DNA of 64,000 nt from Candidatus Hodarchaeota archaeon (GCA_016840035.1 JAEOTC010000038.1:1-64000), one strand, 5' to 3'. Shown: positions 35,780 through 55,004, numbered from the stretch's first letter. The notes: generated by a model from the letters alone, not told the origin. Translations and numbers: made by a program.

Positions 35780-36748
35780 CTAGCTAATATTATTAGCAAG
35801 TTTAAAGCCAAGTACTTGCCAAGCAAGGACATCTTTAATCATGATATTCGCCGTTGATATAGGATCTTTCCTGATAAGACGTCTAAGACCATTCATGACT
35901 CCTAGCATTATACGTATCTCAGGTTTGAGTAATTTAAATTCAGGAATAATCGGATTAATTTCTCGCATTGCTGTAGTATAGATGAAATCTTGATCATCGA
36001 GTTTCCCTTCCGAGTGTGCTTTACTAAATATCTCCCACATCTGGTTAAAAACATGTTCAGCCTCATCTAAAACAGTTTTTGCTTCATTGTCTATGATACA
36101 ACCAAAATGACATAAACTAATGGTATTATAATCAATATTTTTAAGTTTTTGAATTGTAGAATGGAAATCTTTCTTATTACAAAACGGAGGTAAAATCGGA
36201 GGTAAATATGCGTTATCGCCAGCTTTCATACCGATTGCATCCCCGACAAAGATGTTTTTATTCCTTTCATCGAGGATGGAGATGTGATCGGAAATATGTC
36301 CAGGTGTGTGATAAATCTTTAGAGAGATCCCACCAAGATCAACAGTGTTTCCCTCACTCAAGGGGGTTACATCCTTGATATTCTGAAAACTCCCCTTTTG
36401 ATCAAAAACGTTGTTAAATGACTGATCTTCAAGCAAAGGAATAGCCTCAGTATGGGCAAAAACCTCAATTGCTTTCTGTTCTTTTAACGCTCTTTGTCTT
36501 AATATGGGAACTCCCTGACAATGGTCCCAATGAGAGTGTGTCAGGATAATATAATCTGGGGGAAAGGCGTCTAGCTGCTTTAATGCTTTAATAATCCGTG
36601 GTGCGCCTGATCGTGTCCCACTATCAATTAAACAAGACTTCTCTGCTTGAACTAAATATACTCCTCCCGCGCCTGCAACATCAACATAGCCAAAATCAAT
36701 TAGAGTGGTATTGGAATTTATAGGTCCTGGTATCCTCATTCCAGTCAA
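35780..36748 (-). CDS. metallo-beta-lactamase fold hydrolase
   Basis: THSHWDH, TPGH, GD, HFG. Confidence 0.9.
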   Translation of the reverse strand: MTGMRIPGPINSNTTLIDFGYVDVAGAGGVYLVQAEKSCLIDSGTRSGAPRIIKALKQLDAFPPDYIILTHSHWDHCQGVPILRQRALKEQKAIEVFAHTEAIPLLEDQSFNNVFDQKGSFQNIKDVTPLSEGNTVDLGGISLKIYHTPGHISDHISILDERNKNIFVGDAIGMKAGDNAYLPPILPPFCNKKDFHSTIQKLKNIDYNTISLCHFGCIIDNEAKTVLDEAEHVFNQMWEIFSKAHSEGKLDDQDFIYTTAMREINPIIPEFKLLKPEIRIMLGVMNGLRRLIRKDPISTANIMIKDVLAWQVLGFKLANNIS

Positions 36749-38479: not shown

Positions 38480-38653
38480 TTATGCTAATACAACAATTCA
38501 ATTGCAACGATATCACAATTTATCTTTGTTATTATATTCGAAATTGAAAGTACAGGTTTAAGATGAGAGAATATAGAAAAAAAGGAAAAGATGGTTGCTA
38601 GCTCTAAATACGAAAGTAGAATCCAGATCAAACCAAGAATGTATAAAGAAAAT

Positions 38654-39028
38654 TTAGTGGACGACTAAACTAGTTCCACAATTAGGACAAAATTTGGCTT
38701 GGGCAGTATTTTGGGTACCACATTTGATACAAAAGTTAGCGATTTGTCCAACTGGAGCTTGAGGAACGGGTTGAGCACCTGCGTAATATTGTTGACGAGG
38801 TTTGTTCTGGTAACGGATCGGTTCAATAATCCAATAGTATAAAGGACCACCAACCATAATGATAAAACCTACAAAGACCATCAACATCCAGATAGGATTA
38901 AGTAACGAGGAATCATAGCTTTGACCATATTCTTGTTTTCCAATAAAACTTAAAGCAGCAAAAATCGAAGCAACTAACCAAAAACCAAAACCAAAAATCC
39001 CAACACCAAATCCGCGTAAAAAACGCAT
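38654..39028 (-). CDS. small membrane protein with C-terminal zinc ribbon
   Basis: Probable start MRFLRG; two TM helices; FCIKCG..FCPNCG. Confidence 0.75.
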   Translation of the reverse strand: MRFLRGFGVGIFGFGFWLVASIFAALSFIGKQEYGQSYDSSLLNPIWMLMVFVGFIIMVGGPLYYWIIEPIRYQNKPRQQYYAGAQPVPQAPVGQIANFCIKCGTQNTAQAKFCPNCGTSLVVH

Positions 39029-39210
39029 TTCCTCATCATCCTCAAGTTTAGGTTTGTAACAAGTGGGGCTTATAAAAAGGTTTGGAGGGAAGGGGAAAAA
39101 AACCAAAAAAATATGTTGACCTTCGACTTCAAATTGTGAGTATAAATGGTGAAAAAGGAATCCAATTTGGATAAAATCTGTAAAATACCAACCAAACTCC
39201 CCAAAACAGA

Positions 39211-39286
39211 AAAAATGAAAAGAGATGCCGTTTAAACGGTAATCTCAATGCTTAGCTCACGTACCAGCTCTTTGTAGTGATATCTC
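39211..39286 (-). repeat. displaced tfb 3'-end copy 1
   Basis: Encodes RYHYKELVRELSIEITV* plus T-tract; 45/55 nt match to tfb 53991-54045. Confidence 0.9.
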
Positions 39287-39392
39287 CCTAGTAGGGTGAG
39301 GAATACGAAAACAAGAAGGAATTGAAGACTTCGTTTCCTCCCAAAGTATTTTGAATGATTACATAACTGATTCCAGTATTATCCGCTGACTG

Positions 39393-40253
39393 GTGAATGA
39401 TATGTGTAAATACTGCTATCAACACACTCGGAAAATGTGGTATCTCGAAAAAGAATCCTTTGATATTAGATCAGGTAGATTCATGAAAATATTGCCAGGT
39501 AGATTCAGAGAACTGTGGTATAATTTTTACGCTCCTAAGTTACAATCGTTTGTTGATGGAACTACTGGTGACATTGGAGCGAATCCTGATCGTGAACCGT
39601 ACAAGGGTTTACAAAAGATGTTTTACAATTATTTCGCAAAGAACTTTTTAGGTGGTCAGGTCGTTAGCTCCCTCGATGAAATGATGCAAGTCCTTGATCA
39701 AGCAGAAGATATTTTTGTTTCATATTGTTCTTGTAAAAAAACCGCTGGCGGGGGAGAAGATTATCGATGCCTTTTTCTTAATCACAACGCCCGATTTACT
39801 AGAAAACGGCAACTCCAAGGGAAAACAAACAATGAAGGACGTTTCATCGACAAAGATGAAGCAAAAGAAGTAATTCAAGAAAAACGTCGTTTAGGTCATT
39901 ATGGCACAGTTCTGTGGGGATTACGACCGAAAGTAGATTGCATTTGTAATTGTGACCAATATTGTGCGGGTTTATACACTCCCGAAATACGATGGGGATT
40001 ACTACCCTCCTTCACTATTTCTGTAATCGTCGATTCTGATAAATGTGATTCTGATTGTACAGTATGCCTTGATCTTTGTTACCCAAAAGCCATTACAAAA
40101 AATGAGGACGGATTAGTGACTTCAATAGATAATTATCTATGTATAGGCTGTAATCTGTGTGTTGAGAATTGTCCAAATGGAGTTTATGATTCTCAACCAC
40201 GTAAGATATATTATGACGCTTCTATTGGTAAAAAACGCGTATTAGAATATTGA
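39393..40253 (+). CDS. 4Fe-4S dicluster domain protein
   Basis: CSCKK, CICNC, CTVCLDLC, CIGCNLCVENCP. Confidence 0.85.
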   Translation: MNDMCKYCYQHTRKMWYLEKESFDIRSGRFMKILPGRFRELWYNFYAPKLQSFVDGTTGDIGANPDREPYKGLQKMFYNYFAKNFLGGQVVSSLDEMMQVLDQAEDIFVSYCSCKKTAGGGEDYRCLFLNHNARFTRKRQLQGKTNNEGRFIDKDEAKEVIQEKRRLGHYGTVLWGLRPKVDCICNCDQYCAGLYTPEIRWGLLPSFTISVIVDSDKCDSDCTVCLDLCYPKAITKNEDGLVTSIDNYLCIGCNLCVENCPNGVYDSQPRKIYYDASIGKKRVLEY

Positions 40254-40290
40254 TGAAACTATAACAGAATGAGATAAAAACAACAAGATG

Positions 40291-40378
40291 AAAAAGAAAG
40301 GAGATACCGCCTAGACGGTAATCTCAATGTTTAGCTTGCGTACGAGTTCTTTATAGCGATTTCTCACGGTTACTTCGG
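40291..40378 (-). repeat. displaced tfb 3'-end copy 2
   Basis: 79/88 nt identical to 53971-54058; encodes EVTVRNRYKELVRKLNIEITV*. Confidence 0.95.
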
Positions 40379-40469
40379 AAAATCCGAACAGCTATGCAAG
40401 TATCTCAAGGGTAGAGAGATGAGAAGATAAAGTTTATAAGATCTGAAGACTCCTAGAAATAGGATAAGT

Positions 40470-41063
40470 ATGAAAAAAAATAACCGATGTCTTCTTCAGC
40501 TTGTCATTCTAATAGTACTTATCTTGAATCTAATGACAGGGTTAAAACTAATCCGAGGAGGAGAGATGAAAAGGGATCAACTCGTCCAAGTCGAATTATT
40601 ACTATTTCTAAAGGCTGTTCCCATGGAAGATTATCCTACAGCGGTTTTCAGTGGAATTGAAGACTATCAGGTTTGGACTGGAAATGTAACGGTCAATGGC
40701 TCAGTCGCTACAAATAATGACCTCAAAGAAGCAGTTGTGACCCTCAAAAATCGAACGTCAACATTTCTTCACACGAATTTAACGCTAACTAAAGATACGG
40801 ACTACTTAGGTCCGAAAAATCTAGCCTACTTATTCGAAGTAACACTTAATAGTAATGAATATCCAAATGGGTCGTATACATTGTTTTTTCATTTTCTAGA
40901 TACCAAAGGTGCCGGAATGATTTATCATTGGGACATCAGGATAGCTAATGCTTCAGATCATCTCTCTCCAGCAATAGGCCTCCCTCTGAGTTTCCTCACA
41001 CTGTTTTCTATTATTACCATTCGTCGAAAAGTTCCACGACTATTCAAGGAAGAGAAAAAATAA
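40470..41063 (+). CDS. secreted, C-terminally anchored hypothetical protein
   Basis: Signal peptide-like N-terminus, beta-rich core, TM helix with RRK tail. Confidence 0.75.
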   Translation: MKKNNRCLLQLVILIVLILNLMTGLKLIRGGEMKRDQLVQVELLLFLKAVPMEDYPTAVFSGIEDYQVWTGNVTVNGSVATNNDLKEAVVTLKNRTSTFLHTNLTLTKDTDYLGPKNLAYLFEVTLNSNEYPNGSYTLFFHFLDTKGAGMIYHWDIRIANASDHLSPAIGLPLSFLTLFSIITIRRKVPRLFKEEKK

Positions 41064-41120
41064 AGGAGAGAATACCTAGACGGTTATCTCAATACTAAGC
41101 TTACGTACAAGCTCTTTATA
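41055..41120 (-). repeat. displaced tfb 3'-end copy 3
   Basis: Encodes YKELVRKLSIEITV*, identical in protein, with 7 synonymous differences in 45 nt. Confidence 0.92.
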
Positions 41121-41244
41121 AATGGAGTTCTCAATCTTTTATTATGTACTTGCACTTCGGCATGATTTCAGTCAGTTTTGAATGAGAATCCTGAAAAGGA
41201 TATAGTGAGGAAATTTTTCAAATCACGAAATACTCCATTCTTAT

Positions 41245-41451
41245 ATGCGTGAAGGAGGGATAATTGAACATTTGTACTATTCTCCAATATATATAGGAAA
41301 TTATCCTGATGGGGACTGGAATGAATCATATGAGCTTCACGATTATATAGGGGGTTATATTATGGGTGGAATGAACCCCACATGGTATTTGCATCCTGAT
41401 ACAGAGAACAGAGTTTATAAAAATCTAGATCAATGGGATGGACCTATTTAA
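41245..41451 (+). pseudogene. short gene fragment
   Basis: 68 aa ORF directly after a tfb repeat; looks 5'-truncated. Confidence 0.35.
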
Positions 41452-41698
41452 TGATCTTTAAAAGAGAGCTCATTTAAATTTAAAAAAAGAGAATAATAAC
41501 TATAATTTGTAGGGTTAATTAACCATATGTTCACATTTCAAATACAAAATAGTTCTCGTGGAAATCGTAAAAATGTGTGATTAATGCATTATATGATAAG
41601 TATAAAAGCAAATAAAGGACTAGAAATTACTAGTTTTTTTCAGTTAACTGAAAAAAATAAGAATTCAGTAAAAAAGACTTGAATGAGCTGAAAACAAG

Positions 41699-42763
41699 AT
41701 GAAAAGGGGAAAAAGAGGATATTATCTATTATTAGTGAATCTGAGTCTGGGGTTATTACTATTACTAAGTGGATGCACGCTATTACCAACGAGTGAACCA
41801 GAGGAGATATTATCATTTGATCCAAATACTGCAACCATATATAATCCGAAAACAAACATTTCAGAGAGTTTTTATGTCAGGAACATGAACAGGAGTGGTA
41901 GTACTTTCTACCATGAAGATCAAATGAAAATTATAGTCGGAGTAAGAGATTCTAAAGGACTTCCAGGAGTAGCTGTGAATTTACATTTGAGAGTTATCTT
42001 TGACTGGTATGGAAATACAGATATTGTAAATTTAACAGAAGAATTCGGCCTCAAAATGACCACTAATCAATCAGGAGCGGTGTGTTTGATTTGTACATAT
42101 AATCAATATACATGGCCTCAAGGGTCTTATACCACTGAAGGAATACTTGAGATTTCTTCTTCTCAGCTAAATAATACAAGAGGATCCTCTGGAAAGCTAG
42201 ATTTTACCTATTATCATAAAGAAATCACACGAAATTCAACAGTAGAGGGGGGGATAGCAGTTATAAATGCTTTAGAAAAAATGAATCTGATAGAAGAAGC
42301 CAGTTTACTCGGTGGGGAAGACAACCTATACCCAAACTGGAATAGTCAATATTATGAATACTACGATATTAATCAAGTAATATTAAACCAATCTACCATT
42401 GAATTCTATACTAATTATCGCCAGCAACCAAGAGTTGAAGTCTACTATGTAGCATGGACAATCCTGTACGAAGAAACGAATTTAACATACAATATCATCA
42501 GAAATAACTGGAGTACATATATTGGGGAAGATTATGGATCTTTACTGATCAGTGATGAATATCTTGGAGAGAATTGGCTAATAACTGAACCAATCACAAA
42601 AGTAAATCTTACAACAGGTTGGTTAGTCATGCAAATTTTATATATTGATTCATTCCAAGAACCACTAAACGGTTGGACAAGAGTAGTTTATCAAGTTAGC
42701 CTTGTAACCATAGATATGCAACTTCGATGGTTATTATCTAGTTCCTTTACAGCAATAGCCTAA
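41699..42763 (+). CDS. putative lipoprotein / surface glycoprotein
   Basis: Basic and hydrophobic N-terminus ending LLSGC; many NxS/T sequons. Confidence 0.75.
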   Translation: MKRGKRGYYLLLVNLSLGLLLLLSGCTLLPTSEPEEILSFDPNTATIYNPKTNISESFYVRNMNRSGSTFYHEDQMKIIVGVRDSKGLPGVAVNLHLRVIFDWYGNTDIVNLTEEFGLKMTTNQSGAVCLICTYNQYTWPQGSYTTEGILEISSSQLNNTRGSSGKLDFTYYHKEITRNSTVEGGIAVINALEKMNLIEEASLLGGEDNLYPNWNSQYYEYYDINQVILNQSTIEFYTNYRQQPRVEVYYVAWTILYEETNLTYNIIRNNWSTYIGEDYGSLLISDEYLGENWLITEPITKVNLTTGWLVMQILYIDSFQEPLNGWTRVVYQVSLVTIDMQLRWLLSSSFTAIA

Positions 42764-42945
42764 AAATTCGGAATTAACTGAAGATACTTGAACTAAACAT
42801 TAATATGCGTGTTAACCGAGAGGACTGAAAAATTCCACATTTCTAGTAAGAAATCTTTTTTTTCCTTTATAGACTCGGGAGAATTGTTGAAACTGAAGAA
42901 TGAAACCTTGGATATGTGATTTAATCCCTTCCACCCAAAACGAGA

Positions 42946-43018
42946 AAAAAGAAAGGAAATCCCGTCTAGGCGGTAATTTCGACACTAAGTTTGCGTACGA
43001 GCTCTTTGTAGCGATTTC
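42946..43018 (-). repeat. displaced tfb 3'-end copy 4
   Basis: 66/73 nt identical to 53971-54043; encodes NRYKELVRKLSVEITA*. Confidence 0.95.
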
Positions 43019-43170
43019 ACAAAGTAAGTTCATGTTTAGAATAAGAATACAACAATTAAGATATTTAATTGTTGAAAATCAAATCCTTCATTAATTCACT
43101 ATCGAATAGAAAATCACAAATAGGAGAGAGTAGATGTGAAATACGCTTCCTTTTGAGGGATGAGATAAAC

Positions 43171-44142
43171 ATGAATGATATAGAATTGCTGCTAGTTTTT
43201 GGTATTACAATACTCATTTCGTCAGGAATTACCTTTTTTATCCTCAGGTATTTCTTTGCTACACGACTGAAAGGTATAGAAAAATCATCTGATACAATCT
43301 CTAAAATATCTGAGGGAATGGTTCAACAATCTAATAGCTTCATTGATCTAATGAAAAACAGTCTTAATACGCTACAGACGGACGTAATGGGACAATTAAA
43401 AGAATTACGGGAAATGTCTCGGGATCTTCAGACTACTCAAAAAGATACTCAGAGCTCTTTCGAAAAATTTGTCAGTTTAGTACGTATGCGTCCCCAAACA
43501 AAAGGCGAAGTAGGAGAAGGTATCGTACGTTGGGTATTAAGTTCATTACCAGCAAATTCATGGAAAGAGCAAGTAACAATCTCCGGAGGACGGGTAGATT
43601 TTATAGTATATTTACCACCAGATCAAGAAAAAGTTCTCATTGATTCAAAATTTAGCTTTCCAACAGAATTATTAGAATCCGATAATCTAGTTGCTGCTGA
43701 CCAACAAACCATCAACAAAATTAATCGAGGGATAATCAAGAGAAGTAAAGAACTCGAGAAATATTTAGTCCCAGAGAATACAAATATCGGTTTTTTACTC
43801 ATGTACATTCCAGATATACTATTTTCCTACCTATCTGATACCACATTTAAAGAATTGACAGGGAAGAAAATTATTCCAGTTAATGTGTCAGGTCTTTTAT
43901 CAACTTTATTGATAATTTCCCGTCAAATTCAAGTATTTCGAATTGGCGAGGCTATTTCGCGTTTAGAATCAATCAAAACAACTTTCGACAGTGAAATTGA
44001 TGCTATTCAGAAGATAACTAAAACAAGTAAAGGTCAACTTCAGAAAGCACTCACAAACGTCGAAAAAATCGATGTTCAACTTGATTCCACTCGACGGAAG
44101 ATTTTTAGAGAGTTTGGATTAATTGAAGAAGAGAGTACTTAG
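43171..44142 (+). CDS. RmuC family protein
   Basis: TM helix, coiled coil, KGEVGE, RVDFIVYLP, IDSKF, LMYIP; start moved to ATG 43171. Confidence 0.82.
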   Translation: MNDIELLLVFGITILISSGITFFILRYFFATRLKGIEKSSDTISKISEGMVQQSNSFIDLMKNSLNTLQTDVMGQLKELREMSRDLQTTQKDTQSSFEKFVSLVRMRPQTKGEVGEGIVRWVLSSLPANSWKEQVTISGGRVDFIVYLPPDQEKVLIDSKFSFPTELLESDNLVAADQQTINKINRGIIKRSKELEKYLVPENTNIGFLLMYIPDILFSYLSDTTFKELTGKKIIPVNVSGLLSTLLIISRQIQVFRIGEAISRLESIKTTFDSEIDAIQKITKTSKGQLQKALTNVEKIDVQLDSTRRKIFREFGLIEEEST

Positions 44143-44159
44143 GATTAAAGAGAAGGCTG

Positions 44160-44957
44160 GTGAATTTAATGAGTAATTTGAAAGATAAATCAAAAATTTG
44201 TCCATATTATCAAAAACCATGCTTATTAGAGAAGTGTCTTGCCTACAGTGGTGAGACTTGCCTAATTATTCCTTTGGGGAGATTAGAAAGGGAAACTACT
44301 ACAAAAGTGCCTGTAATCCTCAAGACTAAATCCATAAAAGAATTAGCAGAAAAACTTGCTGATTATTATTTGGAAAAATATCCCGATGGAGAAAATTATC
44401 GATATACTGACACTTCCCTTTTCTGGAGCAATAGAATTGGAGTGAAAGAAATCTATAACCTCCCTTCGGACATCCAAGAAAAGATTCAAGATGTGGAAAG
44501 ACTTGCAGAGGACATAACAGAAGATAGGAAAATCCCCGAAGAATTAAAGAGCCAAAAACCTGAGAAGATAGCAGAAAACATGGTCAAATGGGCAGAAAAA
44601 AATTTTGATATCACTAGATATGTATATTTTAGAAAATACTGGGGATCCAAAGGATTGCCCGAATCTTATTATTTTTCAGATAGATATCGGCCGAAAGCTG
44701 AAAAATGTGAGTTACTGGCTGAACAAAAATTAGAGGAAATTCGTGAAAAGAGAAAGAAGGAGAAAAAAGAGAAAGAGAAACAGCAAGCATTAGCTGAAAT
44801 CGATAATATCATTAAATGGTTAAAAGAGAAACGGTTGGTGAAGCTCTCAAAAGCGAATTTAAAGCTTTATTTTTCTGAAATAGGTATGAAGGTCTCTCCC
44901 ACTAATCGTCAGAATGTATACATAAGGGTAAATGAAATTTTAAAACAAGAAAAATAG
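44160..44957 (+). CDS. hypothetical protein with Cys-rich N-terminus
   Basis: CPY..PCL.EKC..Y...C; internal repeat LAEKLADY..FWS / IAENMVKW..YWG. Confidence 0.7.
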   Translation: MNLMSNLKDKSKICPYYQKPCLLEKCLAYSGETCLIIPLGRLERETTTKVPVILKTKSIKELAEKLADYYLEKYPDGENYRYTDTSLFWSNRIGVKEIYNLPSDIQEKIQDVERLAEDITEDRKIPEELKSQKPEKIAENMVKWAEKNFDITRYVYFRKYWGSKGLPESYYFSDRYRPKAEKCELLAEQKLEEIREKRKKEKKEKEKQQALAEIDNIIKWLKEKRLVKLSKANLKLYFSEIGMKVSPTNRQNVYIRVNEILKQEK

Positions 44958-45013
44958 GGGGCTAAGTGATAAAAGTGATAGACCTAGAAATTTATAGCGA
45001 TGGAGGGTATTAA

Positions 45014-45874
45014 TTGAGGAAAACTCGAAATAAGAGAAGTACAAGTTTACTATTAATTTATATTGCCATCAATCTTGGTTTAATTCTCCCAATGGGAGTA
45101 TCAAACGCACTAACCACGAATAGAACACAGAATGAATATACACGAACATTTACTTGTAATAAAGACGCGTATGTAGACTCTTCGAACCCAACTTCAAACT
45201 ATGCTAATGCAGATTTAGAGGTTTCAAACTCATCATATCGAGCAAGACGTTCTTATCTATCCTTCGAAATTCAAGACCTACCTTCAGATGCTGATATAAA
45301 AGAGGTAACATTCGGATTAAGCGTGAAATTCTTGCCTTATGATGACCATACCGTTCCATTAGATATTTGGAAAACAACTTACTTTGATGAAGATATCGTT
45401 ACTTGGGAAAATTGTCCTCAAAGAACTGTTCTCATGATACAAGTCGATATTGCTGAAAATAAACGCTGGAGCATTCCACTGGAAAACCATGGCATTACTG
45501 GAAATTTAAATCTCTATATTTGCTTATCCACCGATCTCGACAACTCTGCACCCATTACATTCGATTCTAGAGATGATATGTGGAATCCACCAAGAGTAGC
45601 AGTTACTTTCGAAGCATTATCCATCGATGAAAGTCCAAATGGAACAGTAGACTTAGTGATATTCCTAATTTTACTTGGTCCAATTGGAGGAATTGGATTA
45701 GCAATATTTCTAATGGTGAGAAAATCAAATAAGAGAAAAACAAGTTTTAGTATTGTATATCAAGAACCGAGAATTTCTCAAAAATCCGTAACTATAGACC
45801 AATTTTGTGGCCAATGCGGTGCTCCTCTGGATTCGACGAATGTTTTCTGTCCGTCCTGTGGGAAGAAACAGTGA
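45014..45874 (+). CDS. DNRLRE-like domain, TM helix and zinc ribbon protein
   Basis: DAYVDSSNPTSNY, RRSYLSF, VTWENCP, FDSRD..PRV; FCGQCG..FCPSCG. Confidence 0.8.
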   Translation: MRKTRNKRSTSLLLIYIAINLGLILPMGVSNALTTNRTQNEYTRTFTCNKDAYVDSSNPTSNYANADLEVSNSSYRARRSYLSFEIQDLPSDADIKEVTFGLSVKFLPYDDHTVPLDIWKTTYFDEDIVTWENCPQRTVLMIQVDIAENKRWSIPLENHGITGNLNLYICLSTDLDNSAPITFDSRDDMWNPPRVAVTFEALSIDESPNGTVDLVIFLILLGPIGGIGLAIFLMVRKSNKRKTSFSIVYQEPRISQKSVTIDQFCGQCGAPLDSTNVFCPSCGKKQ

Positions 45875-45914
45875 GGATATACTTCTTCGTGAGAAGTTAA
45901 AACTGGGTGAAATT

Positions 45915-47036
45915 TTGAATAGAACTAATCTCATGAAACTATTTCAGCTCGAGGATAACCAGGAAATTTTTGATTTAGCCCTTACTCCAAAATCGTGTGG
46001 TGGAGGTGACGAATTCAAACTTTTAGCCCTTTATGGGGATAAAATCATTGACTTAGCTCTGATCATTGATTTTTCAAATCAAGGATTCACAAATACGGGA
46101 GTAATCTCACCTGCTATTGATAGCTTTCATAATGAAGATGCTCTCAACGCACTAGGAAGATATCTAGAAATCGATCATTTGATGAATCCACTTGATAAAT
46201 CCAAACCGATCTCAGATGGTGATGTGAAAGAAGGAGTAGAAGCTCTTATAGGAGCAGCATATCAAAAACATGGATTAACCACATGTATCAAAATTGTTCA
46301 ACGTCTATACGAACAATCGGAATCTTTTTCTACAAAACCGGGAGAGGAAAAAGCTACTATCCTGACGGAAAACTTGGTAGGGATGTTACAAGAGTGGTTA
46401 GCAAGCCAAGGCCTTGGAATACCTGTTTATGAAGGGATACGAGTTGGAGGAACTAATGACAATCCATTATGGAGATGTCAAGTTTCATTTGAATATCATG
46501 GAGAAAAAGTCAAGGAGAAAAGTGATATTTTTTCCAATAAAAGACTCGCTAAGAAGAATGCAGCCCAGAAAGCATTGGTTGCATTAGGAATAAGGAAAGA
46601 TAATGTAAGCAGAGTTTTTGGGTCGATTCAGGAGGTGAAAATTCCTGAAACAGCAACTCAATCTCTCCAAGAACGAGAAATTCTCTTTACCAAAGGAGGG
46701 AGGGGAGGGCATTTTATCACAGGAGAGATACAACTAACAACTCAAACGGGTGAAACTGTCTTAGAATGGGCAGAAAAGAAGATAAAAAAGAATCCTTATG
46801 GAAGCTTGATTCTCCTAAGTGCACGTTTAGAGGAAATAAGTGGATCTTCTTGGTCAACTTCCTTGGAGGATCAGGAGCTAATTCTACTAAATATTGTTAT
46901 TGAAGACATGCCCTATTTTGAAATAGGAAAAGGAAAGTCAAAAACAAAAGCTAGAAAAGATGCTGCGCAAAAAATAATAAGATCATCTAATCTTATCAAA
47001 TGGATTGCTCAAAAATATTCAACCATACTAATCTGA
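45915..47036 (+). CDS. RNase III-like nuclease with two dsRNA-binding domains
   Basis: LALYGD, EGVEALIGA; dsRBD motifs LQEW..NKRLAKKNAAQKAL and GKGKSKTKARKDAAQK; start inferred from GGTGA SD. Confidence 0.8.
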   Translation: MNRTNLMKLFQLEDNQEIFDLALTPKSCGGGDEFKLLALYGDKIIDLALIIDFSNQGFTNTGVISPAIDSFHNEDALNALGRYLEIDHLMNPLDKSKPISDGDVKEGVEALIGAAYQKHGLTTCIKIVQRLYEQSESFSTKPGEEKATILTENLVGMLQEWLASQGLGIPVYEGIRVGGTNDNPLWRCQVSFEYHGEKVKEKSDIFSNKRLAKKNAAQKALVALGIRKDNVSRVFGSIQEVKIPETATQSLQEREILFTKGGRGGHFITGEIQLTTQTGETVLEWAEKKIKKNPYGSLILLSARLEEISGSSWSTSLEDQELILLNIVIEDMPYFEIGKGKSKTKARKDAAQKIIRSSNLIKWIAQKYSTILI

Positions 47037-47042
47037 AAATGT

Positions 47043-47114
47043 AAAAATTAAGGAGATACCATTTGATTGGTAATTTTCATACTAAACTTATGTATGAGCC
47101 CTTTGTAGCGATTT
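47043..47114 (-). repeat. displaced tfb 3'-end copy 5 (most decayed)
   Basis: AAGGAGATACC..GGTAAT..GAGCCCTTTGTAGCGATTT aligns without gaps to the tfb end; the stop codon is lost. Confidence 0.8.
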
Positions 47115-47374
47115 ACCAAGTAACTCCAATCACTGTTACTCGTTTAAGTCAGAAGGGTACAATATTTTCTTCCTGTGTGGAGAAACAATGGAAGATAAAA
47201 AAGTAAATAGCAATTAGCAAAAAAGGGAGAATTCTGTTGAGAATGTGGAAATTATGTTTTAAGATGGAGTTGAAGTAATCGCAAACAGAGAAGACCAGTT
47301 TAAGGGAGAAATATATTGATCCGTTTCCCGTACTCTTAGCATTAAGCATTCTACTAATTGTTATATATATAATA

Positions 47375-48115
47375 ATGCTAATTAATCCTTCAATTTATGA
47401 TCTACTAGAAATGAACAGATCAAATCCCTTTAGTATATTAACTAGTCTATTAATCCATGATCTAGATAATTCAGCACATTTAAGCGTGAATTTGGGGGCA
47501 TTATGGATTTTTGGTTATATTGTAAATATCCAGACAAATCGATTTCGAATGCTAATAACTTTCTTCGTATGTGGTGTATTAGCAAATATATCTACGGTGA
47601 TTTTTTCAGATTTAATAAACCACCTATTTTCTACTACATTCACAAATTGGGCTGTTTCTTCTAGACATTGGATCGGAGAGAATTTACGTGTTGTTCCATC
47701 ACCAAACGGAGGAGGAGCTTCAGACGGATTGATGGGGCTAGGAGGATTTGCTCTCGCTTTAGCTATTGACTTTTTAATTATTAATTTACATGAAGCTTAT
47801 AGAATCAGCCGTAATTCAACCAATAAATACCTAATAATACTAATTGATCGTCTGAATCAGTCAATTGTGGATACCTGTGTAAATTGTGTTGGGATTCTAG
47901 GAATTTTAGTTCTTTGGGCAGGATTAATTATGGATCTTGAAATGTTTTATTATGTTTTAACTTTTAATTACGCAGCAGCAAACGGAGAACTGTTATCTTA
48001 CCCGACATCAGACGGGCATCCGTTACTAGCCCATGCTTTTGGAGGATTGATAGGATTTATCATCGGGATCTATTATACTCGGTTCTTTCAAAAGGGGATA
48101 AGAAACTCCAATTGA
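47375..48115 (+). CDS. rhomboid family intramembrane serine protease
   Basis: H....HLSVN, GASDG, AHAFGGLIG. Confidence 0.82.
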   Translation: MLINPSIYDLLEMNRSNPFSILTSLLIHDLDNSAHLSVNLGALWIFGYIVNIQTNRFRMLITFFVCGVLANISTVIFSDLINHLFSTTFTNWAVSSRHWIGENLRVVPSPNGGGASDGLMGLGGFALALAIDFLIINLHEAYRISRNSTNKYLIILIDRLNQSIVDTCVNCVGILGILVLWAGLIMDLEMFYYVLTFNYAAANGELLSYPTSDGHPLLAHAFGGLIGFIIGIYYTRFFQKGIRNSN

Positions 48116-48185
48116 CATGAGAGTGAAATACAAACAAGAAAAAGATGAGGGGAATACTTTACTTTGGAAAGACTTCCAATCAAAC

Positions 48186-50042
48186 TCAGAAGGATTGGAA
48201 TCGGTTCCTTAAGACTGCACGAAGGTTTCTGAAAGAGCGAAACAGCTGCAAATTCGGAAGATGATGTTGATTGAACATGGCACGATTATCAAGAATTAAC
48301 CCTGTGGCTTGATCTACTTCAGAGCGAATAGCACGCCCCAAACACTGGCGGACCTGTGTGAAGAGATAGCGTTCTATTAACGTCCATTTAACAAAATGGA
48401 GATGACGATAACGGTTAAAATAGAGTCTATAAAGCAAATTGTACACCGGAGTGGGTGCTGGAAAGGGTAAGCCTATTAAAATCACCATTCGTACACGACT
48501 TCGGCCAGTTTGAGGATCTCGAACTTCGACTCCTTCACTAAACTTCCCGCCATAAACTGCAAGCACCACACTTGGGTCCCCATTCATTAATTCAGAGAGG
48601 AATGTAATCTGACCCTTTCTAGGTTCACGATAGAGAGACAGTTTTTCATTCAAATGCTCTTCTAAAAGTGGAAATAAGTCATCAAGAAACTCATAGGACG
48701 GGACAAAAACCCAGGTATGATCAGGAATTTCAAGTGCGACCTCCTTCACAGTTTTTGCACACCAACGCAGGAACTTCTTTGTACGATTACGATGAGAACT
48801 ACTCACCTGCGGATGAATAAATGCAGCCACAAGTAATTGCTGAATACGCGATTTAGGAGTAGGAACGTGGTGCAAATGGTACATATTCCACGGTTTTTTT
48901 TTTAATCCATAATAATGCGAGTAATATTTGAGATATTGAAAAGTGGCAGAAAACAGCACTGTCCGGGAGAACTGCCGATTCACATATTCAAAGATTTTCG
49001 ATGGATAGGGATCGAGTTGAACTAATCCTTCCTCCGTGTTCACCCAATATCGGCCTTGACGCTCAACAAAAGAGCGCACAGCCAGTAAAGCTTCTAGATC
49101 GAGAGGAGAAAGAGAATATCGAATACCTTTCTGATGAAGGAACGAATCGATTTGAGCTAGATAAGAACGATCAAGAGTTGGGGGACGTTTAACATACCCA
49201 TACTTTCGCTGGCATAGATTTTGCAGAATTTGCACAACAGGAAAAGCTCCGATTGACTCAACCAACGAAAGTTGTTTCCGAGTGACTGTAGCCTCTATTG
49301 TTGGCCCAAAATTGTGAGCTTCATCAATAATAGCGAATCTATGACTCCAACGAAAACCATAATCATGCGCTTTCCAGGTGAATCGAGACAGGGAGCGCTG
49401 GAGAGAGTGAGATTCCAAATATCCCTGCGGGAGTAATATAATATTAGCCTGAGGAAGCAAACGTCGGATGACTTGAGCAGGACAGCCATAGGGAGTGAGA
49501 AGCTCCTGAAAACCGGCAAATGATGAAGGACAGTGCTGGAGGGATATTTGAGGAAGAATCTCTCTTAGAGAGGATAACGGTAAAAAACGAGTTTTTTTCT
49601 TTCGAGGACAATGAAAACAGTCATTTTCAGGAGGTAAAGGACAGAGATCTTTGCTAGCGATCAAAGGAAGTAAGGTTAACTTGTCTGCCGGAGGGTTAGA
49701 GTAATATTCTTTCAGAGTTTTGAGAAACACTGATCTAAGTTGTGCTTTGGTTTTAGAAAAACACCAGAGTTGATATTCACCGGTCTTCATCAGATCCCAG
49801 AAGGCAGAAAACGCGGTGACGGATTTACCAAACCCAGTGTAGGCATTAATCGCAATTCGGGGATAAGCAGCAATTAAAGCTAGGACCTGTGCCTGACCAC
49901 GACGAAAGGAGGGAAAAGGAAAATGCTGGCGAATTTCAGGGGGCAATTCTTCATCCTTGAAAGACGAATGAGCCGCACCTGCTTTAAAAGCATCTGAATA
50001 ATAGATAAAAATTCCCTCAAGAAGGTTTTCCCGTATACACAT
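48186..50042 (-). CDS. Rad3/XPD/DinG family Fe-S helicase
   Basis: FRRGQ, AYTGFGKS, Cys cluster, IIDEAHN, SAT, GKFSEGV, GLPFP, QCLGRAIR. Confidence 0.9.
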   Translation of the reverse strand: MCIRENLLEGIFIYYSDAFKAGAAHSSFKDEELPPEIRQHFPFPSFRRGQAQVLALIAAYPRIAINAYTGFGKSVTAFSAFWDLMKTGEYQLWCFSKTKAQLRSVFLKTLKEYYSNPPADKLTLLPLIASKDLCPLPPENDCFHCPRKKKTRFLPLSSLREILPQISLQHCPSSFAGFQELLTPYGCPAQVIRRLLPQANIILLPQGYLESHSLQRSLSRFTWKAHDYGFRWSHRFAIIDEAHNFGPTIEATVTRKQLSLVESIGAFPVVQILQNLCQRKYGYVKRPPTLDRSYLAQIDSFLHQKGIRYSLSPLDLEALLAVRSFVERQGRYWVNTEEGLVQLDPYPSKIFEYVNRQFSRTVLFSATFQYLKYYSHYYGLKKKPWNMYHLHHVPTPKSRIQQLLVAAFIHPQVSSSHRNRTKKFLRWCAKTVKEVALEIPDHTWVFVPSYEFLDDLFPLLEEHLNEKLSLYREPRKGQITFLSELMNGDPSVVLAVYGGKFSEGVEVRDPQTGRSRVRMVILIGLPFPAPTPVYNLLYRLYFNRYRHLHFVKWTLIERYLFTQVRQCLGRAIRSEVDQATGLILDNRAMFNQHHLPNLQLFRSFRNLRAVLRNRFQSF

Positions 50043-50817
50043 GAGGAGTCAAAGGTTTGGAAGCTTTTTTCTTCCTCTTTTTTGACCGAAATTCTCGAAA
50101 ATAACCCCTGAATTCTACCACTTGATCATAGATCTTGTGTGTCCACGAATTTTGCCAGAAACGAATCCGATGTTCTTTGTGTTTTAATTTCGTAATATAA
50201 CAGAAATAGGGAAAGGCCTCCCAGGGGTGGGTTTGAAGCAACTTATCGAGATCCCCACGAAGAGTAACGAGAAAACCCATCTGTTTAAAGGAAGCGAGGG
50301 TAGCAAAACCCCTCAATCCACTCGGGGGAAGAAAACAGGTATCATATCCGTCAAAAACTAAAGCTGTAAGCATAGGATGTCTAAGAATAGGTTTGAAAAA
50401 TTCACGGTCGAAACTCTTGGCAAATAAAGTGTGTTTATCAATTCGACTTAGATAAGAGGTGGGAAGTTGCTTTTGAGATCGGAAATTAAGGACACGAAGA
50501 ATACGTTGAACCTGATAATCCTCATTGAAATCGTAATACAAAATTTGCCATGGTTTTGGACTGCTCAAGAGGCAGGAGGCAACGAGTTGAGCAAGAAACA
50601 GGCTTTTTCCAGCGTTTTCCGGACCAGCAATGATAATGGGCCATTGCCAGAACCAGCCACCTCGCCATGTTCGATCCAAAGACTGTAAGTACGTAGGGAT
50701 CGGTTTACGTGGAGGAAGGGAACTATCGCACGGAACAGCATGTTTAATAACTTGGGATAACAAATCATCTAAAGACTCGGAGTCATTCCTAGATGAGAGA
50801 GGTTTTTGAGAAACCAA
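50017..50817 (-). CDS. divergent RecA/RadB-like ATPase
   Basis: IPTYLQSLDRTWRGG, GPENAGKS, LYYDFNE, LVFDG. Confidence 0.75.
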   Translation of the reverse strand: MVSQKPLSSRNDSESLDDLLSQVIKHAVPCDSSLPPRKPIPTYLQSLDRTWRGGWFWQWPIIIAGPENAGKSLFLAQLVASCLLSSPKPWQILYYDFNEDYQVQRILRVLNFRSQKQLPTSYLSRIDKHTLFAKSFDREFFKPILRHPMLTALVFDGYDTCFLPPSGLRGFATLASFKQMGFLVTLRGDLDKLLQTHPWEAFPYFCYITKLKHKEHRIRFWQNSWTHKIYDQVVEFRGYFREFRSKKRKKKASKPLTPHVYTGKPS

Positions 50818-50916
50818 AAATATACACCTTCCATTTACTAGATATCGGGTTGTCCCCTTTTATATCTGAAAAGATCTAGAAAATTGGAAGAGGACCCAAG
50901 CTCAAGTACTTTTGAA

Positions 50917-50923
50917 TATATAA
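50917..50923 (+). promoter_or_regulatory. putative TATA box for the structured RNA / LAGLIDADG transcript
   Basis: TATATAA just upstream of the hairpin-dense region; a divergent TATAAAA lies at 50858-50864 on the minus strand. Confidence 0.45.
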
Positions 50924-50944
50924 GGGAGGGGCAGAATCTAGTAC

Positions 50945-51815
50945 GGTTCTCTCTTTAGTACCATTCAGGCAGCTATAGTAGGTGAGAATTGTGAATGACC
51001 ACTCACAATGATCTTCACATACGTAGCGAAAAAGTGCTAGTCGCTAGCATTTGCCTTGCACTTGCTTAAAGAGGCAGGTGGATAAACAAACACGGTTGAA
51101 AACCGATGTTGGCAAGTGAAACACGAGAAAGTAAGAGGAAAACTATCCAGTTATGGCAAACTGGAAAATTTAGTCATATTTTGTTCGTGAATGAACTGGC
51201 CCTGTTTCCTCAGAAGAATCAGGTAGATAAGGTTCAAGAATCAGATCAATTAAACCTGGTTCAAGGTACGGATACGAAAACACAAAGAACGCGGAATCCG
51301 CAAAGACAAACAATAACCCCAATCCAATACCCACCAGTATACCCTCTTCAACTGGGAAATACTGGCCTTGTCGACTCTCCAAGGTGGATCGAGTCACACG
51401 ACAAGCAATTCTTTACGAAGGAAACGAAAACCCCACACGAAGGGAAAATGGAACAATACCCAAAAGAACAACACCAGCGTTTAATAACAAAACAACCATA
51501 TTCGACTTACACTCACGGTCAGGAAGAGACGCGGAAGTGTGTGTCAGTCAAGCGGAGTGTATCCACTCAAAACCATATCCAACTACCACGGGAAAGCATC
51601 CCTCCCAAGGGTGCTAGGCCTCAGAAGAGATGTGTCGTAAGACAGGTCTCTTCTGAGGATCCCACGAATATGGGCCCTTGTCATGGTGACATGACCAGGG
51701 TAGGTAGATACTCTACCCAAGGTGAACTGACGATGTCACAAACCAACCCTCTTCCTACGGAAGGAGGGGCGCAGGCCCCACTTCCTGACCGTGTCATCAC
51801 GGGGCAAAACGCCCC
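50945..51815 (+). ncRNA. candidate large structured RNA
   Basis: More than 15 consecutive hairpins with G-U pairs on the + strand, GUAA and GUGA tetraloops, A-rich linkers. Confidence 0.6.
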
Positions 51816-53214
51816 ATGGCCGGTCGTCCCCGAAGAGTACACCTTCCAGGAGGTGTCTCTTTGGGAGTTTACCAATCTCTATGTCCTGTTGGGCAAAGAC
51901 GATTGGATTACCCTGTCAACATTGTTGCAGGGAATCAATCTCTCGGCAATAAGTCGAGAGATTGGGATAGGCGTATCCGTCCTATCCAACATTCGAGAAT
52001 CCCCCGATCAAACGATCGCGGTGGCGAATCTCGAACATCTCTGCCACTATGCAGGGATGGATCTTTCACAGGTCGAGCGAAACGCGCGAGCGGTTCGTTT
52101 TTCTAAACGAGGTGACCTGGAGTACCTCAAATTTCCATTCGTCATGGATATTTATGCCTGGCGAGTCCTTTGTCACATTGCTGGAGATGGTAATGTGCAT
52201 TTTCGCAAGTATCCTGATCTCCGGTGGATTCAACTCCCCGAGCATCAGGATCCAATGCGGACTCTTCTATCCAATCTGAGTCGTGATCCAACAATTGATT
52301 ACGAACGGATGATATATCCTAAGACATTAGCTTATGCTATCTTGGGAACCATTCGAGGGATCACATTCCGTGACCTTCGGACCCCTTCATTCATACAATT
52401 TGTACTTGATTTACCCAGTCGCTATCGTGATTGGAAAGTACAATTCCTTGCCGCTTTCATCGTAGATGATGGATGTATTGGTGAGGACATATCTATTTCT
52501 CAGAAGGATGAACGAGTCCTTCGCCTCATCATGCAACTATGTGATCAGTTGGGATATGATCATTCCCCGCTATATCCAAGTAAGCGTGATGGAGTAAATA
52601 ACTTTCAGTTACGTCAGGAAGGAATTCAAGCCTTCTTATATGATGTAGCGCCCCTTTATGCACGTGATCCACTTCTAGGTCTCTGGCATAAGCATACACA
52701 ACTCTTAACTGTTGCTAGTTCTTTTTCTTCAGAAAGAAAACTAGATCAAAAGTTATCTGTTCATGTGTGCACCACTATCCTTCAGATTTTGGAGGATGGA
52801 ACTATCTATTCCACGGATGAACTGCGTGTTCATCCAGCTCTTCAAGTTTATCTTGAAGGGTACCCATCCTATGTTTTAAACAGAAGATTGGGAATTCTCC
52901 ATCGTTCTATGAATCTCATTCATGAGGACATCAAGAACAATGGAACCTCTTACCGGCCTAAACGCTGGTATGTTCCTCGTTGTACTACTTCAGAACACTT
53001 GATTCAAGTGTTTCATGCGAAGTACAACAATCGTGCTCATCCACAATCCTACAAACGTAGGAACATTACTTCTCAGATGGTAGAGGACGCCATTGAGGAA
53101 CTTAGTGCGCAGGGGGTCAAACCTAGTGCACTAAATGTCTCTCGTTTCATAGGGTGCTCGAAAAAGCAGCTCTATAAACGAAAAGACTTACGGGTGTACT
53201 TCATTGGTAAATGA
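51733..53214 (+). CDS. freestanding double-motif LAGLIDADG endonuclease-like protein with HTH domains
   Basis: VLCHIAGDG and FLAAFIVDDG; N-terminal XRE-like HTH (LSAISREIGIGVSVLSNIRE); C-terminal HTH; GGTGA SD at 51721 (frame open from 51106). Confidence 0.75.
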   Translation: MSQTNPLPTEGGAQAPLPDRVITGQNAPWPVVPEEYTFQEVSLWEFTNLYVLLGKDDWITLSTLLQGINLSAISREIGIGVSVLSNIRESPDQTIAVANLEHLCHYAGMDLSQVERNARAVRFSKRGDLEYLKFPFVMDIYAWRVLCHIAGDGNVHFRKYPDLRWIQLPEHQDPMRTLLSNLSRDPTIDYERMIYPKTLAYAILGTIRGITFRDLRTPSFIQFVLDLPSRYRDWKVQFLAAFIVDDGCIGEDISISQKDERVLRLIMQLCDQLGYDHSPLYPSKRDGVNNFQLRQEGIQAFLYDVAPLYARDPLLGLWHKHTQLLTVASSFSSERKLDQKLSVHVCTTILQILEDGTIYSTDELRVHPALQVYLEGYPSYVLNRRLGILHRSMNLIHEDIKNNGTSYRPKRWYVPRCTTSEHLIQVFHAKYNNRAHPQSYKRRNITSQMVEDAIEELSAQGVKPSALNVSRFIGCSKKQLYKRKDLRVYFIGK

Positions 53215-53250
53215 AGTCACTCCCATTCCCTTCTCTTTTTTTTTCATAAC

Positions 53251-53838
53251 TCAAACTTGATACGGAAGACTAGTTTCATCAAGTTTTACGATCTCATTTC
53301 CACTAATTGACCATGAGAACCTCTCACATGCTTCTTTGAAAACAACATCTGTTACTAGAAAATCCAGAATTCCTGAATCTTTACTAGAATCAAGGATTTT
53401 AACTTTTTTCCTTCGGGTCCACTCACGAAGTATTTTGATATCCTCAGTTAACTCCATAAGTTTTTGGAGAATCTCATCAAGAGGACGACATACATCAATT
53501 GCATATTTAAACGAGATGTAAAAGTGAATTGGTGTGCGAAACAAAGAGACTGGAGATTCTTGAGTAAAATGGTTTTTAATGGAATTTTCCACAAATCTCG
53601 CATCTTGAAGAGAGAGGGGGTTTTTTAGAGATCGAGATCCGTCATTATTCTTTTTGATTTGCACAATTACTTCTTGAACGAAGTCCTGGTTATTTATTGA
53701 AGGAAATCCATCAAAAATTAGTCTTTTACTTGTAAAATCAGTATAGTTTATTTGTGTGTATCTATCCTTGATTGCAAGAGGTGTATCTGAATAATTTTGA
53801 TTTTTAATCTCATTAGGGTTTTGTTCATCTTCTTCCAC
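53251..53838 (-). CDS. hypothetical protein
   Basis: 195 aa ORF with GGAGG SD. Confidence 0.7.
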   Translation of the reverse strand: MEEDEQNPNEIKNQNYSDTPLAIKDRYTQINYTDFTSKRLIFDGFPSINNQDFVQEVIVQIKKNNDGSRSLKNPLSLQDARFVENSIKNHFTQESPVSLFRTPIHFYISFKYAIDVCRPLDEILQKLMELTEDIKILREWTRRKKVKILDSSKDSGILDFLVTDVVFKEACERFSWSISGNEIVKLDETSLPYQV

Positions 53839-53969
53839 ATATTTACCTCCTTAGAGTCAATAAACGTGAAGGATTTTTAGAAACCCAAGTTCATTAGATT
53901 GTTAAATCCTAACAAAAAAGAAGAACATAATGAAATTAAGAAAAAAAGAATCCAAGCAATTATTATAAT

Positions 53970-53981
53970 AAAAAAGAAAGG
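53970..53981 (-). terminator. T-rich terminator of tfb
   Basis: CCTTTCTTTTTT just after the tfb stop; a similar tract is kept in each repeat copy. Confidence 0.55.
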
Positions 53982-53990
53982 AGATCCCGT

Positions 53991-55004
53991 CTAGACGGTA
54001 ATCTCGATACTTAGCTTGCGCACGAGCTCTTTGTAGCGATTTCTCACGGTAACTTCGGTAACGTGAGCGACCTCTGATATTTCCCGCTGTGTCCGTCGTT
54101 CTCCGTTGATTATCCCGCTGATATAGATTGCTGCGGCTGCTAGGCCGGTTGGGTCTTTTCCTGCTGTCAATCCTCCGGCTTTTGCGCGTTTTAGGATTTC
54201 TGCGGCTTTTCGTTGACAGACTCCTGATAATCGTAATTCTGTCCCAAACCGTACCAGATAATCTATGGGGCTTGCGAGGGGGATATTCAGGTATAATTCC
54301 CTGAGTAATAAGCGGTAACATCTGCCCAGTTCTTTTTTTGTGATTCGTGATTCTTTTGCGATCTCATCGAGTGTTCTGGGTACCCGGCGTACGCGTGCGG
54401 ATGCATAGATGGTTGCTGCGACCATCGCTTCTATGGAGCGTCCTCGTACTAAGCGTTTTTCTATGGCTTTTCGATAGATTATTGCTGAGGTTTCTTTTAC
54501 ATTGCGTGGTATTCCGAGTTGTGAGGCTAATCGATCCATTTCTGACATGGCGAATGCCAGATTTCTATCCATTGAGCTATGGACTCTTGTTCGTATTTGC
54601 CATTTTCGTAATCGATAGATTTGTGCTCGTCGTGAGGCTGTGAGTTTGTTGCCAAACGTATCTCGGTTTTCATATCCTATAATTGTTGATAAGCCTTTAT
54701 CATGTACTGAAAATGTGCTAGGTGATCCTACACGACTGCGTTTATCGCGTTCTTCGCTATTGAACGCACGCCATTCGGGTCCTTCATCTATTAATCGTGT
54801 TTCCAGTACGTAACCACATTTTTCACAGATTAGTTCGCCTCGATTTTCGTCGGCGACGATATCTGTGGATCCACAGTTTTTACATTCGAGGATTTCTTCC
54901 TCATCATCTACCTGGCCTTTTTTCTGTGGTTTTGCTTTTGCTTCTTTCATAAGTGCCATTCCTGAGCGTTCCTTCTCAAACTTGTGATTGCCTGGTCGGG
55001 GCAT
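53991..55004 (-). CDS. tfb: transcription initiation factor B
   Basis: Zn ribbon, GPEWRAF, RLRKWQ, GRSIE, GKDPTGLAAA, TQREISEVAHVTEVTVRNRYKEL. Confidence 0.98.
   Translation of the reverse strand: MPRPGNHKFEKERSGMALMKEAKAKPQKKGQVDDEEEILECKNCGSTDIVADENRGELICEKCGYVLETRLIDEGPEWRAFNSEERDKRSRVGSPSTFSVHDKGLSTIIGYENRDTFGNKLTASRRAQIYRLRKWQIRTRVHSSMDRNLAFAMSEMDRLASQLGIPRNVKETSAIIYRKAIEKRLVRGRSIEAMVAATIYASARVRRVPRTLDEIAKESRITKKELGRCYRLLLRELYLNIPLASPIDYLVRFGTELRLSGVCQRKAAEILKRAKAGGLTAGKDPTGLAAAAIYISGIINGERRTQREISEVAHVTEVTVRNRYKELVRKLSIEITV

Follow-up and report, generated by a model that had tools for sequence, protein, structure and literature searches.

Displaced 3' ends of a transcription factor B gene and a LAGLIDADG endonuclease gene in a gene cassette array of a Hodarchaeota genome

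In a 64,000-nucleotide stretch of a Candidatus Hodarchaeota archaeon genome (GCA_016840035.1, JAEOTC010000038.1:1-64000; hereafter the window), five displaced copies and the one working copy of the 3' end of tfb, the gene for the TFIIB-type transcription factor B (TFB), lie in the same orientation and bound five gene cassettes at positions 39211-54058. The array also holds a gene absent from the original prediction made for this DNA, a free-standing LAGLIDADG endonuclease gene that we term F16, and we lean, by a little, toward an endonuclease-driven replacement of the tfb 3' end in which cargo is carried along as part of an F16-centered mobile unit. Under this reading, a selfish nuclease associated with the 3' end of the main tfb gene seems to bring kilobases of cargo, some of it defense-type genes, to a fixed chromosomal site, and the cast-off gene ends are left behind as a dated trail. 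Hodarchaeales (Asgard) are among the closest known archaeal relatives of eukaryotes and, to our knowledge, little is known of how their genomes gain genes; the locus offers a concrete and recurrent route of gene gain in this group.

The tfb gene (53991-55004, minus strand) encodes a 337-residue protein with a TFIIB zinc ribbon and two TFIIB cyclin repeats (Pfam TFIIB, E = 4.8e-43; Zn_Ribbon_TF, E = 7.4e-20), which is 95-100% identical among genomes of the same genus. Its working tail (53969-54058) comprises the last 21-22 codons, the stop codon at 53991-53993, a 14-bp palindrome over the stop and a T-tract. A repeat search returned a single family of six direct copies starting at 39212, 40291, 41056, 42946, 47043 and 53971, with 64-88% identity to the reference copy and spacings of 1079, 765, 1890, 4097 and 6928 bp, identical to the unit lengths given in the original prediction for a tfb 3' end recurring in one orientation. 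Every copy was scored by a six-copy profile at E values from 1e-19 to 1e-27. The displaced tails, all on the minus strand, are numbered from the most distal. Tail 1 spans 39211-39295 (stop TAA at 39232-39234) and tail 4 spans 42944-43033; tail 2 (40290-40378) is the longest copy, with 22 codons kept and five synonymous changes and one non-synonymous change; tails 3 and 5 lie at 41054-41139 and 47041-47126. Tail 3 keeps 14 codons in which all seven changes are synonymous. Translated in the tfb frame, copies 1-4 read YKELVRKLSIEITV followed by a stop, or are variants of it at one or two residues. Tail 5 is the most decayed, with seven non-synonymous changes and its stop lost: position 47063, where a stop codon had been predicted, reads CAA.

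These copies are restricted to one locus, as a word-7 BLASTN search of each against the whole 4.3-Mb assembly gave matches only on the array contig, which bears out the expectation that they would not be scattered genome-wide. The tail profile gave no match in the three further tfb paralogues of this genome, which are 39-46% identical. The genome is a metagenome bin of 293 contigs, 87% complete with 4% contamination, and a strain chimera had been named as one possible objection to the array. Exact Logan contigs from three runs (X1-X3) bridge copies 1, 2, 4, 5 and 6 and reach unique sequence to either side, crossing five of the six junctions, and the arrangement is therefore not a mis-join. Three "skip" joints (40938 to 53970, 41682 to 53303 and 47374 to 53924) were seen in Logan contigs of four runs, but because their shorter sides, at only 21-25 nt, fall below the reliability mark, we draw no inference from them; no evidence of circles or excision was found in the Logan contigs of four runs.

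Comparable arrays are present in at least ten other assemblies. Within the same genus, the orthologous site of genome G002 is empty, with flank gene F6 (window 35780-36748) immediately beside tfb, G014 has one cassette (a PIN-domain gene), G020 has two, G004 three, the window genome five, and G001 five to six tails. The GGGGAG flank motif of the empty G002 site is also retained on the far side of window tail 1. Additional arrays were found in G013, G015, G017 and G021. Some cassettes recur elsewhere in different positions, namely a 197-residue gene and a block of helicase, ATPase, 702-residue and 195-residue genes, and the cargo in relatives' arrays includes beta-helix surface proteins, an esterase, solute-binding proteins, a P-type ATPase, a thioredoxin-like protein and a PIN protein. 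A degenerate tail pattern searched against metagenome contigs recovered 22 more stretches, four of them with two or three tails within 2-4 kb. The arrays across relatives and metagenome contigs therefore make the phenomenon general for this lineage. Gene content downstream of tfb is not identical among relatives, ranging from zero to five or more cassettes, and the variation in cassette number and content together with the one empty site upholds the proposal of serial accretion, or capture, anchored at the tfb 3' end.

The tails carry the signature of genes that were once in use. Over the 14 codons kept by nearly all copies, 21 displaced tails from 8 arrays show 116 synonymous and 39 non-synonymous differences from the working tail of their own array. 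The non-synonymous share is thus 25%, compared with about 63% expected for a dead copy beside an evolving live one (p = 4e-22) and 78% under random mutation. This synonymous excess indicates that each tail once ended a working tfb allele, supporting the earlier view of the displaced copies as former 3' ends of the working gene. Judged by these codons, most of the tail divergence must have arisen while both sequences ended working tfb alleles, and every insertion would have united tails of different lineages. The displaced tail of G014 agrees with its close relative G002 at the sole site where the G014 working tail differs. Displaced tails are in this sense a natural record of past tfb alleles, of use in tracing gene flow between species.

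We located the breakpoints by comparing 50 displaced tails at invariant tfb positions. Agreement is at least 0.86 from the stop to -48 nt, about 0.7-0.8 from -51 to -63 nt and 0.45 at -66 nt, and falls to background at -72 nt and beyond. Most displaced copies end at an ACC/GAA junction (window 54056/54057) and a minority are shorter; the limit of -63 to -66 nt is common to about 70% of the 50. In near-identical tfb pairs, the foreign tract, visible as dense third-position differences, begins at -82 to -103 nt, which is 16-40 nt upstream of the displaced-tail limit. The clearest pair is G002 and G014, where the gene body differs by 2.3% and eight third-codon positions differ between -82 and -55, straddling the junction. 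Because the replaced tract overshoots the limit of the displaced copy, it fits a break followed by resection and donor copying (co-conversion). A conservative recombinase predicts a tract that starts at or after the start of the displaced copy, which the observed overshoot does not fit, and unlike the insertion of an integrase-borne element, the change does not begin within the repeat. The putative break point coincides with a candidate endonuclease target, a 21-bp pseudo-palindrome (54045-54065, minus strand) with 7 of 10 positions paired and its center within 2 nt of 54056/54057. It suits a LAGLIDADG site and could be due to chance, at a probability of roughly 0.03 after allowing for nearby centers.

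Slightly further upstream, codon 28 before the tfb stop (54075-54077) is a TCN serine in some alleles and AGY in others, in genes that are otherwise close. A single synonymous step cannot turn TCN into AGY, which suggests two old haplotypes, possibly spread by conversion just upstream of the putative break. At the other end of the tail, a 14-bp perfect palindrome (consensus ACCGTCTAGACGGT) lies over the tfb stop at 53985-53998, ahead of the T-tract and in the same place in relatives' tails, and is probably the tfb terminator hairpin. Its variants include CCGTTTAAACGG in copy 1 and, in the G004 copies, ACTG...CAGT, in which the third base of a Thr codon pairs with a non-coding base; G001 has a different downstream hairpin (GACTAG...CTAGTC) with compensating changes among copies.

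F16 is a 702-residue open reading frame (ORF) at 51106-53214 on the plus strand that converges on tfb. Homologues all come from Hodarchaeales, the group to which their source names assign the window organism, and two motifs about 95 residues apart, HIxGDG (357-362) and FLAAFxxDDG (447-456), are invariant in 19 of them and kept in 17-18 six-frame copies. In an AlphaFold2 model made from 19 sequences, confident from residue 226 on (core predicted local distance difference test score 82-96), each motif forms the end of a helix followed by a strand, giving two LAGLIDADG helices with a conserved acidic residue and then Gly. Foldseek against the PDB matched the core to I-DmoI with probability 1.0 and a target-normalized template modeling score of 0.57-0.65 over about 188 aligned columns, and also to PI-PfuI, PI-SceI and I-SceI, which include intein endonucleases. 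On its motifs and its predicted pseudo-dimeric alpha-beta-beta-alpha-beta-beta-alpha fold, F16 is assigned as a LAGLIDADG endonuclease. It offers a candidate meganuclease that can be tested, its predicted target being 21 bp long and lying in a conserved gene.

The N-terminal part of the F16 reading frame differs from the rest. The model leaves the first 210-225 codons disordered, and the conserved core begins at 51781. A comparison of the window with G020 gave 24 synonymous and 112 non-synonymous codon differences in the first 210 codons, which are poorly conserved, and 114 and 83 in the core; change in the early codons is thus near-neutral, and the true start is probably the ATG at 51733, which would give a protein of 493 residues. 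Overlapping these codons, between a RecA-like ATPase gene and the core, lies a hairpin-dense, GC-rich stretch (50900-51740) with about 47% GC, whose folding z-scores are near -6 for either strand. No Rfam family matches it, and instead of coding sequence it may represent a structured leader or a repeat region at the DNA level.

An intact F16 gene and the working tfb tail are convergent in 14 loci (the window, two G020 contigs, G011, four contigs found through the protein and six through the tail pattern), usually 120-200 nt and at most 1.6 kb apart. Among metagenome contigs recovered by the tail pattern only, a converging F16 was present in all six that were informative. A six-frame profile search further revealed C-terminal stumps of F16, every one of them on the same strand and immediately ahead of a tail; five lie at further working tails and four at displaced ones (two of the four in G001). 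Across 10 tfb loci of the genus, F16 is intact in four, a stump in four and missing from two. F16 relationships fit those of tfb poorly (Spearman 0.29), and hosts with 9% tfb divergence carry F16 copies that are 53% apart. The proximal cassette in which F16 lies is 41-44% GC compared with 33-39% in its surroundings. Sporadic presence, decay, loss, incongruence with tfb and a GC-rich cassette make up, as read from sequence, the pattern expected of a homing element that enters, degenerates and is superseded.

Cleavage of tfb by F16, the position of the cut and the building of the array by repair, not by another enzyme, are our inferences. F16 would cut a tfb allele about 63-66 nt before the stop, near 54056/54057, and the broken gene would be repaired from a donor locus that supplies, read in the direction of tfb, a tfb tail of its own, then a spacer, the endonuclease gene in convergent orientation and the cargo behind it. 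The resident tail from the break onward would be displaced downstream as a dead copy. The donor's own dead copy could act as the far homology arm, allowing whole cassettes or runs of cassettes to be copied into a new genome, and a displaced tail that travels with the element would then be older than the event installing it, which would explain that the degree of decay is out of step with the order of the tails. Old endonuclease genes would be reduced to C-terminal stumps or lost, whereas cargo and tails would persist. A bolder extension, which we put forward only tentatively, is that the 3' end of tfb, an essential and almost invariant gene, is opened by F16 and forms a working, integrase-free gene-capture platform, in which any DNA bracketed by two tails can be copied in by break repair and defense-like cassettes (DinG-type helicase with RecA-like ATPase, Piwi, PIN, RmuC) are shuffled among Hodarchaeales. 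If true, cassettes would be shuffled much as in integrons, by a different chemistry.

In architecture, the nearest described case is that of the fungal mitochondrial "mORF" hybrids, in which an inserted C-terminus is followed by an endonuclease ORF and the native C-terminus, the two C-termini being 64-81% identical in nucleotides and 94-100% in amino acids; examples are atp6 in Allomyces and atp6, atp9, cox2 and nad3 in Glomus (PMC3630166). In both settings an incoming 3' segment, an endonuclease gene and a displaced native segment follow one another without an integrase (in the window: tail 6 of tfb itself, F16, cargo and tail 5), the two 3' segments are divergent in nucleotides and almost identical in protein, and the displaced copy resembles the corresponding gene in a close relative. 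The same layout is seen in G020 and, with stumps, in G014 (one) and G001 (several). Unlike the mORF genes, the tfb array sits on an archaeal chromosome at a transcription factor gene; F16 lies on the opposite strand, convergent with tfb in all 14 loci, whereas the mORF endonuclease is in phase with its host gene; up to five or six displaced tfb copies pile up; and kilobases of unrelated cargo separate them, with most of the old endonuclease genes gone. A mechanism known from fungal mitochondria would thereby be extended to an archaeal chromosome, with cassette build-up added. The original prediction knew of no description of such a process for tfb; this stands in the literature searched, with the similar architecture in fungal mitochondrial genes as noted (PMC3630166), and no paper combining LAGLIDADG with Asgard archaea was found there.

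A second parallel is offered by phages, as the break-driven spread of F16 beside a conserved target, with co-conversion of neighboring sequence, would resemble that of endonucleases lying beside, not inside, the gene they cut. Free-standing homing endonucleases of T4-like phages (seg, mob) spread in this way by "intronless homing". Terms for such free-standing homing in T4-like phages occur in PMC6083498. The phage cases differ in having no tandem displaced gene ends or cassette arrays, and their nucleases are of the GIY-YIG and HNH types.

Several observations weigh against the endonuclease-driven replacement that we favor. The window F16 protein has no Pfam or NCBIfam match, and one homologue has a faint match to PF14528. 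No F16 stump was detectable in the four distal cassettes of the window, or in the distal cassettes of G004 and of contig C137 in G020, so that capture by F16 is an extrapolation there. Distances between tails are uncorrelated with those between the adjacent F16 copies (Mantel rho 0.07, p = 0.25). The family is also not exclusively linked to tfb, as there are F16 relatives of about 420 residues with both catalytic motifs intact (L065 9101-10330 in G002:C96; L066 9308-10588 in G008:C52; L068 707-1966 in G015:C411), of which those of G002 and G008 stand in stable synteny beside an LPG_synthase_TM-type membrane protein gene, away from tfb, and a 493-residue copy in G003 (L069) adjoins a methionine-synthase-like gene. 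The shorter relatives may be domesticated or aimed at another gene. Around the putative break, tfb alleles do not split cleanly into "immune" and "sensitive" types by F16 status, and the empty G002 allele and the F16-linked allele of the window differ at only 2 of 24 positions. Species-averaged tail divergence equals that of the gene body, and there is therefore no general signal of recoding. Finally, copies 2 (40305-40316) and 4 (42960-42971) have reciprocal half-site variants of the palindrome, CCGCCT.AGACGG and CCGTCT.AGGCGG on the plus strand, a pattern that a crossover at the palindrome center would leave, although it involves two bases only.

That last feature also counts in favor of an alternative we regard as unlikely, in which small integrative or integron-like elements were moved by a recombinase acting in trans (the host XerA, a second Xer-like enzyme, or an enzyme missing from the incomplete assembly), the tail and palindrome served as an attachment (att) site and F16 was a frequent passenger. 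Direct repeats of a gene 3' end around inserted DNA are a classic mark of integrase-mediated insertion, and elements that exploit Xer use the host's own enzyme. Such repeats flank the inserted DNA here, the perfect palindrome over the stop has symmetric variants in some copies, the distal cassettes of the window bear no trace of an endonuclease, and every genome searched encodes a tyrosine recombinase.

The search for the enzyme itself argues the other way. Neither a tyrosine or serine recombinase nor a transposase was recognizable in any array ORF scanned with Pfam in the window cargo, as the original prediction had stated, and no integrase was found among 20 ORFs of relatives' arrays or, even as a fragment, in or beside about 25 arrays and array fragments. 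In six genomes, the array contigs are free of tyrosine recombinases: the two PF00589 matches of the window genome are on contigs C174, whose enzyme scores as XerA, and C244, the second Xer-like gene, and a single Resolvase fragment is on C169. Each of G001 and G004 yielded a single tyrosine-recombinase match, which lies far from the arrays and scores at E about 1e-47, as does the XerA of the window genome. The tail pattern was absent from the viral contigs searched. Pfam scans of the arrays gave no Cas1-like ORF, the casposon reading having had no dedicated search. A tRNA-type att site or a known intron was excluded, with no tRNA in the window and no Rfam match at E 0.1 over 37-56 kb.

The geometry is likewise hard to reconcile with a trans-acting recombinase. 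The foreign tract starts 16-40 nt before the displaced-copy limit, cargo ORFs extend into tails (F21 in two genomes and, in G004, a solute-binding protein), which fits imprecise junctions better than exact att cores, and paired changes in the palindrome link a Thr codon to a non-coding base, as expected of a tfb terminator hairpin. Tandem integrative elements are found at the 3' ends of archaeal tRNA and protein genes, a Thaumarchaeota survey (PMC6563490) being one example. In such elements, as in the tfb arrays, the gene 3' end is restored, a displaced partial copy is left and tandem arrays occur, but an integrase is present, or visibly once was, beside the att site, and none is seen in the tfb arrays.

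The original prediction had gone further and called the array functionally integron-like, a description that does not hold beyond layout. A fixed platform, short cassettes each closed by a repeat in the same orientation, and content that varies among relatives are common to both. The tfb array, in contrast to an integron, has no IntI (no PF00589 match in the window and none on the array contigs of five relatives); its repeats are coding ends with a short stop-codon palindrome instead of attC hairpins; its cassette genes lie on both strands; its junctions look imprecise; F16 is tied to the tails; and its breakpoints favor break repair.

Another possibility, which we consider quite improbable, dispenses with a dedicated enzyme: the array would be a variable island exchanged by homologous recombination anchored in tfb, with tails arising from illegitimate joins and F16 as a selfish or domesticated bystander. 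TFB, at 95-100% identity across the genus, is an ideal homology anchor; cassettes and flanks are alike in identity between the window and G020 (64-80%), as for old and mostly vertical inheritance; and the tail distances fail to track those of F16. Random crossovers, however, would not yield the sharp -63 to -66 limit in about 70% of 50 tails or breakpoints clustered at -82 to -103, and would not repeatedly put the 3' end of F16 directly before displaced tails. An assembly artifact joining strains at the conserved repeat has next to no probability: the bin is fragmented and contaminated to the extent given above and many Logan contigs stop or diverge close to tails, yet exact contigs of three runs span tails 1, 2, 4, 5 and 6, the copies diverge by 12-36%, a level at which collapse or mis-joining is not expected, and the same type of array occurs in independent assemblies of other studies.

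The distal cassettes carry cargo of varied kinds, all of it on the plus strand. Cassette 1 encodes a 286-residue protein with a C-terminal 4Fe-4S dicluster domain (39393-40253), cassette 2 a 197-residue protein of unknown family (40470-41063) whose stop lies inside tail 3 and whose homologue likewise abuts a tail in G020, and cassette 3 a 354-residue protein without a family match (41699-42763). Cassette 4 holds genes for an RmuC-family protein (43069-44142), a 265-residue protein of unknown family (44160-44957), a zinc-ribbon protein (45014-45874) and an RNase III-like protein with a double-stranded RNA-binding domain (45807-47036). The last two ORFs share 68 nt, and the true start of the RNase III-like gene is probably downstream of the listed GTG. 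Four plus-strand cargo genes had been described as ending just before tfb copies; three do so within 40 nt (stops at 40253, 41063 and 47036), while the fourth (42763) ends 180 nt away.

In the proximal cassette, F16 is accompanied by genes for a rhomboid-like protein (47375-48115, plus strand), a DinG/XPD-like helicase (48186-50042, minus strand) and the RecA-like ATPase (50017-50817, minus strand), the latter two also present beside the endonuclease in G020 and L051. Between F16 and tfb lies a 195-residue ORF of unknown family (53251-53838, minus strand) that adjoins a tail in G020 and G004 as well; neither a protein atlas nor a homologue search provided a usable relative for it. PADLOC defense profiles matched the helicase (type IV DinG-like, 1e-44) and, weakly, the ATPase, and left the remaining window cargo unmatched. 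Cargo adjoining the endonuclease is often defense-like. Proximal cassettes of other Hodarchaeales also contain endonuclease-adjacent cargo (L049 1082-7151; L051 1851-9801): one such cassette has a Piwi-domain (Argonaute-family) gene and a helicase, and another encodes an ERCC4 nuclease, an 883-residue protein, a DinG-like helicase with a 268-residue partner and a Zc3h12a-type RNase.

At the far end of the array, positions 37016-39106 hold genes for an M20 peptidase and a zinc-ribbon membrane protein, bounded by the conserved flank gene on one side and tail 1 on the other. Both are missing from the empty site of G002, and the membrane protein gene also adjoins the outermost tail in G004. These two genes may be older cassettes with decayed tails.

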